The notes beneath the pieces were generated by a model, which searched no databases, was not told the DNA's origin, and saw only the letters and a list, made by a program, of their open reading frames with translations. A program made the translations under genes and the position numbers. This document shows positions 7,560 through 33,312 of a stretch of DNA of 64,000 bases, one piece after another. The stretch is from Candidatus Micrarchaeota archaeon. Its GTDB lineage: Archaea; Micrarchaeota; Micrarchaeia; Norongarragalinales; UBA8480. The stretch's first letter is position 1; each line of letters begins with the position of its first letter. Location: contig JAHFHC010000003.1 of the NCBI GenBank assembly GCA_023247085.1, positions 3,407 through 67,406 on the forward strand. Reading direction: 5' to 3'.

Positions 7560-7918
7560 CAAAAAGTTGAGAAGATAGAGCGAGGTAAGGGAGTTGCACC
7601 CTTCTATTCCGCTTGCTGCACGCGGAGCGCCTATTCCGCTAAATTTTTCTTTTTAGAAAAAAACTACTGCAGGCGGATGCATAGCTGATCTGCCAACCTC
7701 GCAAATTTCAAAGGCAAAAAAGCATTAGGACTAGTCGGTAATTAATACCTTTTTTTGTTTTCTAAAAGAACACAGAGGCCAAGTCTCTCCAAGCAATTTT
7801 AATTAGAAACTTGGAAGCCAACATTGGCGCACCTGCGTTCAACCCACCTTTTTACAGAATCCGATGCTAAAAGTAAAGAAAAAAGTGCCAATATAAGCGT
7901 TCCGGATAAGAATAAAAG

Positions 7919-8143
7919 CGGGCTCGGTGGGATTTTCAAGCAAAAACCGTTCTTTTTACAAAAAACAAAAGAAAAAAAGACGCTGCGTGTTCTTTTTTAG
8001 AAATAAAATGTTTGTTGTCAAAGAAAGGTGTTGTCTTTGAACCCACGACCCTTCGGTTAAGAGCCGAATGCTCTAGCCATTCCAGGAATTTTGCCGCTAC
8101 TATTATTATAGTTATGGCATAATTCAACCTGAGCTACGAGCCC
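7919..8143 (-). tRNA. tRNA-Lys(CUU) with two introns, a 48-nt intron in the D-loop and a ~103-nt intron in the T-loop
   Basis: On the minus strand, exon1 (8143..8128) is GGGCTCG TA GCTC AGG. Exon2 (8079..8036) is TGGCTA GAGC A TTCGG CTCTTAA CCGAA GGGTC GTGGG TTCAAA. Exon3 (7932..7919) is T CCCAC CGAGCCC G. Joined, they give a 74-nt cloverleaf: 7-bp acceptor GGGCTCG/CGAGCCC, U8 A9, D-stem GCTC/GAGC, anticodon stem TTCGG/CCGAA, loop CUCUUAA (U33, anticodon CUU, A37), 5-nt variable loop, T-stem GTGGG/CCCAC. Exon-intron junctions are uncertain by a few nt. Confidence 0.6.
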
Positions 8144-8303
8144 ACAAAAAACAAAAAAAATGTATTTGCTAGTTTAGAGGAGCGAATAGTTATTTAAAAT
8201 ATCTCTGCGTATATAAAGTTAGTAAAACAGCACAATGCTTTAGGCATCGTAGCTAAATTACAACATTTCGAACGTTGTATTCAACCTTTTGAATGGTTTG
8301 AAA

Positions 8304-8900
8304 ATGGTAAAAAAAATTCCTGCAAAGGCTGAAGTGAACAACACCAGTAAAATGGTGAGTCCTACAAAGCAATTAGCTGGGGAATTAACTCTTTTTATAA
8401 AGGAACTTGCTGGCGAAGAAGGCGTTCAAATAATCTCGTGTATTGGCGACAGTGGAACAACTGACGATAAGATTGAAGAAGTTACAAAAATGAAAATCGC
8501 AGAGATACGCTCTGTGTTAAACCACTTGCATAGCTATGGACTAGTAGAATACACTAGGGAGAAAAATTTGCAGACGGGGTGGTTCACTTACACTTGGCGG
8601 CTAAATGCAAACCGTGCATTGCAAAACTTCTTAGTTTTAAAGAGACGCGAATACGAAAAATTACGCACAAAGCTGAGCAGTGGGGATGGCGTTCAGTTAT
8701 ACCGTTGTCAAAAAAGCTGTAATTGTTTAGAGTTTGAAAAAGCAATTGAACTCGGTTTCCGCTGTCCGGGTTGCCGCGGTAAATTAAATGTAGTGGATCA
8801 AGAAGAAGAATTATTAAAACTTGAACGAAAGATAACTTCATTAACAAGTGTAACTCAACTGTCAACCTCGGATTTTTCAAGCCGCGTATTACAAAGTTAA
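8304..8900 (+). CDS. tfe: Transcription factor E (TFE-alpha / TFIIE-alpha homologue)
   Basis: N-terminal winged helix (IAEIRSVLNHLHSYGLVEYTREKNLQTGWFTYTWRLN), then a zinc ribbon CQKSCNCLEFEKAIELGFRCPGCRGKL. The track ORF begins at the TTG at 8289; the ATG at 8304 (MVKKIP) is the likelier start. Confidence 0.55.
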   Translation: MVKKIPAKAEVNNTSKMVSPTKQLAGELTLFIKELAGEEGVQIISCIGDSGTTDDKIEEVTKMKIAEIRSVLNHLHSYGLVEYTREKNLQTGWFTYTWRLNANRALQNFLVLKRREYEKLRTKLSSGDGVQLYRCQKSCNCLEFEKAIELGFRCPGCRGKLNVVDQEEELLKLERKITSLTSVTQLSTSDFSSRVLQS

Positions 8901-8988: not shown

Positions 8989-9214
8989 AGCGGGGTAACA
9001 AACTCGTTTCTCTTTAATTAGATATTAGTTTGACCCAAGGGTAGCCAGGAGTGCCCGCTGGTCCGACCAACGGCTAATTCATACAAATAGCAGCTGGTTA
9101 GGGCGAAGCTCATAACCCGGAGACCGGTGGTTCAAAAACCGCTTTTCTTTTAGGAAAAGAAAAGTGTGTGGGAAAAGAAAAACTTCTTCTTTTTCGAAAA
9201 TCCACCCCCCGCTA
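8989..9214 (+). tRNA. Candidate interrupted tRNA (anticodon loop CUCAUAA = CAU, Met/iMet-like) with probable introns; fold not fully resolved
   Basis: AGCGGGG UA at 8989-8997 is perfectly complementary to CCCCGCU at 9207-9213. The latter directly follows a T-stem 3' strand TCCACC (9201-9206), which pairs with GGTGG (9126-9130) 5' of TTCAAAA. A canonical D-loop AGCTGGTTAG (9092-9101) and an anticodon loop CTCATAA (9109-9115) are in the right order. The anticodon-stem 5' strand does not pair as written. A T-loop intron of ~63 nt is implied, as in the tRNA-Lys at 7919-8143. Confidence 0.25.
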
Positions 9215-32334: not shown

Positions 32335-32450
32335 GATAGCGGCCATAGGAGAGTGGAAATACCCAGTCCCATTTCGAACCTGGAAGTCAAGCACTCTAAC
32401 GGCACTCCCAGTACTGTTGTGATCAACGGGAACAGAAGCTGCTGCTATCA
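32335..32450 (+). rRNA. rrf: 5S ribosomal RNA
   Basis: GATAGCGGCCATAGGAGAGTGGAAATACCCAGTCCCATTTCGAACCTGGAAGTCAAGCACTCTAACGGCACTCCCAGTACTG...GCTGCTATC. Helix I closes by 5'/3' complementarity (GATAGCGGC with GCUGCUAUC), and conserved loop C/E motifs are present (CCCAUUUCGAAC, AGUACUG). Confidence 0.7.
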
Positions 32451-32475: not shown

Positions 32476-33312
32476 CTACTTTACCGCGAAATCAATAACA
32501 ACTTGTACGCTGAACGGAGAATAGGGGCGTACAACGCGTTTGAAAATTATCTTACATTTTCTCTTCTTTTTTCTACACTCGGTTTTAATTTTTTTCTCCA
32601 ATACCCTAAATGGGTTGGTTTTCTTTTTAGTTTTTTCATTGCGGTGTGACCCAAATCCATAAAGGTGAACTATTCCACCAACCGCCGTCGCGTCGATTAT
32701 TTGTGGTAAAAATTTGTATGCAGTATGAGGCAGCGGCGTAATAACTCTATCCGCCCACTTCTTTTTTTGTTTTAGCAATTTCTTTGCGTCGCCTTTATTT
32801 ACAACAACAATTTCGCTTACTTTATTTAATGCAATATTCTGTTGCATATATTTTACCGCAACTGGGTTCAACTCATTTGCAATAATGTCTGCAGTTTTTT
32901 GCTGAGTTTTTAGTTTTTTGGCAATTATAATTGGAAACGGCCCAACTCCCGCAAACAACGCAAGCACTTTTTCTCCAGTTTCCACTTGTGCAGCTATTCG
33001 GCTGCGTTCAAATGCAAGGCGTGGAGAAAAGTACACTCTTGCTACATCAAGTTCAAAAAAACAATCGCTTTCTCTGTAAGTTGTTTTAGTACTTTTCTTT
33101 CCAGCTAAATGACGCAACTTCCACACACGATATTCTCCATGCATTGCGCCCCTTTTTTCGTAAACGGACTGCAAGTGTTTATTAGCTGCTAAGATTTCTT
33201 GAGCGAGTTGCTTGGCGTTTTTTTTCTGTTCAACGGGAATTTCAGTAATTGCAATTGTGCCAATAGTGTCTAGCGGCAATGTAGTTGCGGGGTTTGCTTT
33301 CAGATCTTTCAT
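32476..33312 (-). CDS. Class I SAM-dependent tRNA methyltransferase of the Trm5/Taw2 (Met-10+) family
   Basis: VLALFAGVGPFPIIIAKK is the SAM-binding motif I. The N-terminal domain is typical of Trm5/Taw2. Confidence 0.55.
   Translation of the reverse strand: MKDLKANPATTLPLDTIGTIAITEIPVEQKKNAKQLAQEILAANKHLQSVYEKRGAMHGEYRVWKLRHLAGKKSTKTTYRESDCFFELDVARVYFSPRLAFERSRIAAQVETGEKVLALFAGVGPFPIIIAKKLKTQQKTADIIANELNPVAVKYMQQNIALNKVSEIVVVNKGDAKKLLKQKKKWADRVITPLPHTAYKFLPQIIDATAVGGIVHLYGFGSHRNEKTKKKTNPFRVLEKKIKTECRKKKRKCKIIFKRVVRPYSPFSVQVVIDFAVK

Follow-up and report, generated by a model that had tools for sequence, protein, structure and literature searches.

A tRNA-Lys(CUU) gene of a Micrarchaeota archaeon with two predicted BHB introns, one in the D-loop and one in the T-loop

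The 64-kb stretch of DNA analysed here (the window, whose coordinates are used throughout unless a locus is named) contains on its minus strand a tRNA-Lys(CUU) gene in three pieces, which, with a probability of about 0.9, is a functional gene with two introns of the bulge-helix-bulge (BHB) type, predicted to be spliced by proteins. A functional gene of archaeal type with an intron in the D-loop and another in the T-loop is also what had been proposed when the window was read by itself (the sequence-only reading), and it is borne out by the BHB motifs, by orthologues with and without each intron, and by compensatory changes. The assembly of the exons, the BHB geometry at both junctions, the presence or lack of introns among orthologues and the covariation of the spliced cloverleaf are all seen directly. 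Heavily disrupted tRNA genes, including genes with 59/60 introns and with several introns, are already documented for Micrarchaeota (PMC3239211), and the present gene offers no mechanistic novelty.

The window has a G+C content of 40% and encodes archaeal marker genes; NCBI lists homologues of its TFE/TFIIE-alpha protein under the names Candidatus Micrarchaeota or Micrarchaeia, and the host is an archaeon of the Candidatus Micrarchaeota lineage. The TFE gene is the neighbor of the tRNA-Lys gene (Table 1); other genes of the window include CTP synthase, apgM, enolase, class I aminoacyl-tRNA synthetases, Trm1 and Trm5. The nearest species-representative genome is that of the Micrarchaeota isolate nzgw34 (L065 among the loci compared below); it is only 88-89% identical over 7 kb and thus represents a related species, not the same one. 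One public run, SRR14366766, contains the same contig.

As exons of the tRNA-Lys gene, three minus-strand segments had been named, GGGCTCGTAGCTCAGG (8143-8128), TGGCTAGAGC...GGGTTCAAA (8079-8036) and TCCCACCGAGCCCG (7932-7919), and all three are found at these positions. Joined into a 74-mer, they are recognized by ARAGORN as tRNA-Lys(ctt), with a 7-bp acceptor stem, a 4-bp D-stem, a 5-bp anticodon stem and a 5-bp T-stem, and all 21 stem pairs are Watson-Crick, in keeping with the flawless cloverleaf that had been described. When the D-loop junction is shifted by one base, for the reasons given below, the resulting 75-mer is likewise tRNA-Lys(ctt) with 21 of 21 stem pairs, and its universal tRNA bases are intact; the product of the earlier reading is thus retained, at a mature length of 75 instead of 74 nt. 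Exon 2 fits the pattern by which 86 archaeal tRNA-Lys loci were found. The gene does not encode CCA, and the discriminator is followed by T-rich sequence. About 50 nt upstream of exon 1 stands a block GATTTTAAATAAC(T/C)ATT, which occurs at the same distance in the relatives L002, L004 and L006; the TTTTAAATA block of the window is a putative archaeal promoter and would make a plausible TATA box.

Table 1. Coordinates of the tRNA genes and other features discussed in the text; positions refer to the window unless a related locus is named.
Feature	Position	Strand	Description
tRNA-Lys(CUU) exon 1, 17 nt	8127-8143	-	acceptor 5' strand, U8 A9, D-stem 5' strand, A14 G15 G16 U17
tRNA-Lys(CUU) intron 1, 47 nt	8080-8126	-	D-loop, between U17 and U17a (5' of G18); strict BHB
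tRNA-Lys(CUU) exon 2, 44 nt	8036-8079	-	rest of D-loop, D-stem 3' strand, anticodon arm (CUU), variable loop, T-stem 5' strand, U54-A59
tRNA-Lys(CUU) intron 2, 103 nt	7933-8035	-	T-loop, 59/60; strict BHB
tRNA-Lys(CUU) exon 3, 14 nt	7919-7932	-	U60, T-stem 3' strand, acceptor 3' strand, discriminator G73
TATA-box-like TTTTAAATA	8191-8199	-	48-56 nt upstream of tRNA-Lys 5' end
TFE/TFIIE-alpha homologue	8304-8900		adjoins tRNA-Lys on its 5' side, divergent orientation
tRNA-Cys(GCA)	7579-7702	-	exon 1 7702-7667; 37/38 intron 7666-7614 (53 nt); exon 2 7613-7579; U73
Initiator tRNA-Met(CAU), three introns	8989-9214	+	exons 8989-8997, 9039-9061, 9108-9136, 9201-9214
Initiator tRNA-Met intron 1, 41 nt	8998-9038	+	9/10
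Initiator tRNA-Met intron 2, 46 nt	9062-9107	+	30/31, anticodon stem
Initiator tRNA-Met intron 3, 64 nt	9137-9200	+	59/60
5S rRNA gene	32335-32450	+	stand-alone; Rfam 78.8 bits
Trm5-like methyltransferase gene	32476-33312	-	adjoins 5S rRNA gene
tRNA-Lys(CUU) gene of L004	L004 4623-4892	-	three introns
Cross-matching intron, tRNA-Lys	L004 4638-4729		59/60
Cross-matching intron, tRNA-Cys	L005 4301-4425		37/38
Cross-matching intron, tRNA-Lys	L006 4661-4784		59/60
Cross-matching intron, initiator tRNA-Met	L065 3435-3497		59/60
341-aa ORF	L002 4094-5119	-	between TFE/tRNA-iMet and apgM
341-aa ORF	L003 5769-6794	-	between TFE/tRNA-iMet and apgM

The junctions were placed by comparing all those that regenerate the tRNA with a strict rule: a central 4-bp helix (H) with two bulges of 3 nt, each cut after its second base. 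A strict 3-4-3 motif is found at the T-loop junction as proposed, and at the D-loop junction after a shift of one base. The D-loop intron is thus present as the sequence-only reading had it, but not with the 48 nt and the cut after base 16 given there, where no BHB is formed. Because a BHB is obtained only for the cut after base 17, exon 1 runs from 8143 to 8127, the intron has 47 nt and the tRNA 75 nt. In this motif, H is UCAG (8132-8129) paired with CUGG (8085-8082), the bulges are GU|U and AA|U, and the inner helix is formed by the five base pairs of GAAUU/AAUUC (8125-8121 / 8090-8086); the mature D-loop after splicing reads AGGUUGGCUA. The 5' cut after gene base 17 is set by the BHB, and exon 1 is identical or near-identical in the orthologues. 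A single register is common to the window, L002, L004 and L006, with H = UCAG(12-15)/CUGR and bulges (G/C)U|N and AA|U, the three relatives having the UCAG/CUGA form. The corrected cut yields AG(G/C)U^UGG, which is the sequence of L005, where the D-loop intron is lacking (AGCUUGG; GCTCAGCTTGGTAGAGC). In the unconstrained ensemble computed with ViennaRNA, the core pairs of the D-loop BHB have a probability of about 0.81 and those of the inner helix of 0.86-0.96. The minimum free energy structure places the helix of the D-loop intron in the register CAGG/CCUG and not UCAG/CUGG, preferring G16:C58 and leaving U12:G62 at P = 0.15; the choice of register therefore rests on the comparison with L004, L006 and L005. 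The CAGG/CCUG register was rejected, being impossible in L004 and L006 and leaving a D-loop of 12 nt.

For the T-loop intron, the size of about 103 nt that had been stated agrees with the 103 nt obtained here, at position 59/60. Its strict BHB has H = UUCA (8041-8038) / UGAA (7938-7935), bulges AA|G and AA|U, and the 5-bp T-stem as outer helix; as UUCA represents bases 54-57, H stacks directly on the T-stem. Since AAA is repeated at both ends of the intron, the junction can be read as either 59/60 or 56/57, and the alternative register (GGGU/GCUU) gives an identical mature product. In L005, the corresponding junction lies unambiguously at 56/57, with GGGU/GCCC and an inner helix GAACC/GGUUC, and in L002 and L003, which have no T-loop intron, TTCAAATCCCAC is uninterrupted. 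A 59/60 BHB of the form UUCR/YGAA is also found in Methanomassiliicoccales, in Woesearchaeota and in other Micrarchaeota.

The gene order CTP synthase ... TFE - apgM - enolase is kept in relatives, and in every syntenic relative examined the gene-free gap upstream of TFE holds a tRNA-Lys(CUU) gene on the opposite strand. At least six other genomes have the same exons in this syntenic place, with different intron content. When species-representative genomes were scanned with a sequence pattern, 86 tRNA-Lys(CUU) loci were obtained and then sorted by architecture; the closure search for orthologues required a G at the start and a GC-rich acceptor. Among Micrarchaeota, the gene has no intron in L024, L040, L081 and L039, a D-loop intron alone in L002, L003 and L060, and a T-loop intron alone in L005 (88 nt), L034, L061, L074 and L085; both introns are found in the window, in L065 (47 and 101 nt) and in L006 (66 and 125 nt), and L004 has three, in the D-loop, the anticodon loop and the T-loop. 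All five states, from no intron to three, are represented among the syntenic orthologues beside TFE. The intron-less genes of L040, L024 and L081 agree with the predicted junctions. In L004, the intron in the anticodon loop fits a strict BHB only at 38/39 (UCUU/AAGA) and not at 37/38, and no strict BHB yielding a 7-nt T-loop was found for the T-loop intron of this gene. The pattern for archaeal tRNA-Lys also matched tRNA genes of 72-74 nt at eight loci (L008, L063, L069, L072, L076, L077, L091 and L092) on contigs labelled Patescibacteria, Saccharibacteria or Acidithiobacillus; these probably represent bacterial tRNA-Lys(CUU) genes whose anticodon and T arm are similar. The 341-aa ORF of L002 and L003, which represent one relative, has a faint match to LAGLIDADG_3 and is absent from the window and from the other relatives.

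The gene of the window is presumably expressed as a single precursor of about 225 nt with an additional leader and trailer, in which each pair of exon-intron boundaries would fold into a BHB. At the D-loop intron, the exon bases U12-G15 would pair with CUGG near the 3' end of the intron, replacing half of the D-stem for a time; since this BHB borrows U12 and C13 from the D-stem, the D-arm is expected to form only after intron 1 has been excised. At the T-loop intron, U54-A57 would pair with UGAA near the 3' end of the intron, stacked on the T-stem. The splicing endonuclease EndA would cleave in both 3-nt bulges, an RtcB-type ligase would unite the three exons, and RNase P, a 3' nuclease and CCA addition would finish the 75-nt tRNA, the CCA being added later because none is encoded. 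Judging from the literature, the EndA of this organism is expected to be of the broad-specificity, three-unit epsilon2 type; alpha2beta2 and loop-bearing alpha4 enzymes are further architectures of broad specificity. In ARMAN-2, the founding Micrarchaeota genome, 56% of the tRNA genes are disrupted, including 59/60 and multi-intron cases, and the three-unit epsilon2 EndA cleaves strict as well as relaxed BHBs in vitro (PMC3239211); the structure of this enzyme has been described (PMC3488258), and an epsilon2-type EndA is also present in the related Mancarchaeum (PMC5829648). Neither EndA nor RtcB is among the 30 ORFs of the window that were scanned against Pfam.

A very unlikely alternative to splicing in cis is that the three pieces belong to a split tRNA, being transcribed separately from promoters inside the introns, annealing through complementary flanks and being joined at the BHBs by the same endonuclease chemistry. 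Sense-strand runs of T7, T6 and T5 in the T-loop intron resemble archaeal termination signals, and the T7 and T6 runs could end a first transcript; an A/T-rich stretch of this intron, TTTTATTT, could serve as a TATA box. Runs of five or more T occur at 14 per kb in introns 7933-8035 (-) and 7614-7666 (-), compared with 2.5 per kb in the sense strands of ORFs; they are thus not avoided in the ORFs of the window, and their frequency there weakens them as evidence of termination, so that they amount to a mild puzzle. Against separate transcription, the pieces are collinear on one strand, just 47 and 103 nt apart and all within 225 nt; some orthologues have T-loop introns of just 21-38 nt, too short for a promoter; and the conserved TATA-like block stands only upstream of exon 1, with none conserved inside the introns. 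In addition, the helices that are needed form in cis within the complete precursor: the unconstrained ViennaRNA fold of the 225 nt (-67.2 kcal/mol) yields the acceptor stem, the helices of the D-loop intron, and the T-stem followed by UUCA/UGAA, where a 3-nt bulge, AAU, marks the 3' splice site. The split and tri-split tRNAs of Nanoarchaeum equitans and Caldivirga maquilingensis likewise have BHBs at their exon junctions and the same endonuclease and ligase chemistry, but their pieces are separate, scattered genes; the collinear pieces of the present gene fall outside this class, which is made up of separate transcription units at different loci.

In an alignment of twelve spliced Micrarchaeota tRNA-Lys orthologues, scored on the cloverleaf, 99.6% of the stem cells pair, compared with 22-53% when the partners are slid by 1-3 columns; this pairing is partly there by construction, as the finder demanded perfect closure of the acceptor and the T-stem, but the double changes are not. 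The L004 and L006 rows of this alignment were spliced at their BHB junctions, template-guided splicing having forced spurious micro-exons there, and the L004 row additionally assumes junctions at 37/38 and 59/60, both without a strict BHB. Compensatory double changes are seen in five pairs. Pairs 5:70 (U:A, C:G, G:C) and 7:68 connect exon 1 with exon 3 and so bridge both introns, pair 52:66 (A:U vs U:A) bridges the T-loop intron, and the remaining two belong to the anticodon stem (alignment columns 29:45 and 31:43). As far as aligned sequences can tell, these changes indicate selection on the spliced form of the tRNA.

The same observations bear on the possibility that the locus is a decayed pseudogene, a former tRNA-Lys with two junk insertions and a working copy elsewhere. 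Such a reading would draw on the fact that the inspected part of the genome is 64 kb, that default tools detect no tRNA at the locus, and that the insertions are AT-rich and of low complexity, with oligo-T runs. However, none of the 21 stem pairs is broken and the universal bases are preserved; the exons are identical in L065, where the introns have diverged and overall identity is only 88-89%; the compensatory changes extend across the insertions; and both insertions lie exactly within BHB motifs. Moreover, in each of the Micrarchaeota assemblies examined the scan of species-representative genomes found one tRNA-Lys(CUU) locus, and in the nearest relative, nzgw34, it is the interrupted one. 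Exon identity, compensatory changes and BHBs thus strongly disfavor both a decayed copy, which is very unlikely, and an assembly by chance, for which the odds are vanishingly small. The latter would have cloverleaf-like pairings arise in random AT-rich DNA when two gaps may be placed freely; by a rough count, 128 kb of strand offers about 1e13 arrangements if the positions and lengths of the introns are free, 21 pairs allowing G:U have a rough likelihood of 1e-9 per arrangement and are not rare alone, and a permissive BHB scan (a 4-bp helix with weak flanking helices) gave hundreds of motifs in the 225 nt. Yet the joint chance of all-Watson-Crick pairs, invariant bases and two BHBs is roughly estimated at below 1e-9, and a chance origin is refuted by at least six other genomes that have the same exons at the syntenic position. 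Self-splicing introns of group I or II, which have a few hundred nucleotides or more and a conserved ribozyme core, were discarded, the introns here having only 47 and 103 nt and no match to Rfam intron families (none at gathering score in the window, none at E<=10 in 7600-8500). No RUGAUGA/CUGA box pair of a C/D-box sRNA was seen by eye in the introns.

The tRNA-Lys gene had been said to escape ordinary finders, and default ARAGORN indeed reports no tRNA in the 64-kb window. With Rfam at gathering score, the only hit in the whole window is a 5S rRNA (32335-32450), and at E<=10 over 7600-8500 there is only noise and no tRNA match, so that this gene goes unseen by covariance models of intact tRNAs. 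Hidden introns had been suggested as the reason why the window seemed to lack tRNAs, and this has held up, for two more interrupted tRNA genes adjoin tRNA-Lys. A scan of the window for closure of the acceptor and the T-arm gave eight matches, of which three are real tRNAs (Lys, Cys and initiator Met); together they have six introns, five of them non-canonical, and all lie within 1.7 kb around TFE. The trio is conserved in relatives, with variable intron content.

The tRNA-Cys(GCA) gene has a single, canonical intron, whose BHB, read by eye, has H = CUGC/GCAG and bulges AG|U and CA|A; orthologues are found in all syntenic loci. ARAGORN in intron mode calls this gene tRNA-Gly(GCC) (7578-7702), with a splice site that is two bases off, and splicing at the BHB gives tRNA-Cys(GCA) instead. 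The mature tRNA-Cys has an unusual T-loop, UGCAACU with G at 55, a 3-bp D-stem and a D-loop without GG; the same T-loop is found in L004, L005 and L065, and L002 has UGCGACU. The third gene, found only by the custom closure scan, is identified as initiator tRNA-Met by A1:U72 and by G29-31:C39-41, the spliced 75-mer being tRNA-Met(cat). Its intron 2 has a strict BHB (CGCU/GGCG, bulges GG|U and AA|G), and introns 1 and 3 form three of four central pairs. Orthologues have one or three introns, the one at 9/10 being present in all relatives and the other two in some genomes.

The tRNA introns of the window are AT-rich (29-48% G+C), and a hairpin with a U-tract in the 5' arm and an A-tract in the 3' arm, for example CUUUUCUUUU-AGG-AAAAGAAAAG, recurs in tRNA introns of several genomes; such hairpins occur at 7644-7661 and 9142-9163 of the window and in the tRNA-Lys introns of L004, L005, L006, L085 and L022. 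Perfect hairpins whose 5' arm is U-rich and whose 3' arm is A-rich are rare in the window, with six loci, two of them inside tRNA introns. Across 17 intron-bearing tRNA-Lys genes, the density of hairpins is 4.15 per kb of intron vs 0.16 in the flanking sequence, an enrichment of about 25-fold (Poisson P about 2e-7); within tRNA introns, they occur in Micrarchaeota and in one Pacearchaeota genome. Introns of different tRNAs also match each other in nhmmer searches. The tRNA-Lys T-loop intron of L006 matches the tRNA-Cys intron of L005 (E 2e-10), which in turn matches the tRNA-Lys T-loop intron of L004 (E 1e-10) and the initiator tRNA-Met T-loop intron of L065 (E 6e-7), sometimes in opposite orientation; reversed-sequence controls reach only about 1e-4. 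To judge by sequence, these matches suggest an intron family that spreads between tRNA genes. The two introns of the gene described here have no significant similarity to introns of other tRNAs and match only their own orthologues.

A broader and doubtful extension of this would be that the long AT-rich introns of the clade form one related, possibly mobile BHB family, marked by the U-tract/A-tract hairpin (CUUUUUCUUU-loop-AAAGAAAAAG) and often by a small GC hairpin following it, copies of which have moved among Lys, Cys and initiator Met genes and between positions 37/38 and 59/60 in both orientations. If so, intron transposition would be active in DPANN archaea, analogous to that in Thermoproteales; the hairpin might serve in protein binding, in stabilization of the precursor or in tolerance of oligo-U during transcription; and the two introns of the tRNA-Lys gene would count among the family's older or more diverged members.

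The closest known counterparts are in ARMAN-2 (Candidatus Micrarchaeum acidiphilum), whose pre-tRNA-Cys(GCA) has a 59/60 intron and whose pre-tRNA-Pro(GGG) has two T-loop introns, both processed by the epsilon2 enzyme (PMC3239211, PMC3488258). The present gene comes from the same phylum and shares with the ARMAN-2 genes BHB introns at positions other than 37/38, among them 59/60, the occurrence of several introns in one gene, and the property of being overlooked by default tRNA finders. It differs in being tRNA-Lys(CUU) with a combination of D-loop and T-loop introns, in the length of these introns (47 and 103 nt, compared with 13-25 nt in the assayed ARMAN-2 substrates), and in having strict motifs of the hBHB type where ARMAN-2 tRNA-Cys has a relaxed hBH. 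The same insertion point at 59/60, with the helix UUCR/YGAA and bulges AA|N, is found in tRNA-Lys(CUU) of Methanomassiliicoccales and Woesearchaeota, where the intron is the only one of the gene and has 21-23 nt in the former and 26 and, in one genome, 91 nt in the latter.

For Thermoproteales (Pyrobaculum, Thermofilum and Caldivirga), up to three introns per tRNA, an alpha2beta2 EndA and intron transposition are on record in the studies that PMC4090602 cites (Sugahara 2007/2008, Fujishima 2010). As in these organisms, several BHB introns per gene are found here in the D-arm, the anticodon arm and the T-arm, and their presence varies between related genomes; the sharing of sequence between introns of different tRNAs in relatives of the window resembles intron transposition as it is presented in PMC4090602. 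Unlike Thermoproteales, which are TACK archaea, the host is a member of the DPANN with a low-GC genome, a different EndA architecture is expected, and the introns of the tRNA-Lys gene itself do not resemble those of other tRNAs.

The window illustrates how routine annotation overlooks tRNA genes in DPANN MAGs: the three found in 64 kb are all interrupted and go unreported by ARAGORN at default settings and by Rfam. Further undetected disrupted tRNAs are probably present in DPANN genomes in the view of the authors of PMC5829648, and hidden tRNAs distort inferences about completeness and codon usage for such MAGs. The syntenic orthologues with zero to three introns, for their part, represent a natural series for the gain and precise loss of BHB introns.

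Rfam reports neither a 16S nor a 23S rRNA within the window, and the 5S rRNA gene stands alone, next to the gene for the Trm5-like methyltransferase.
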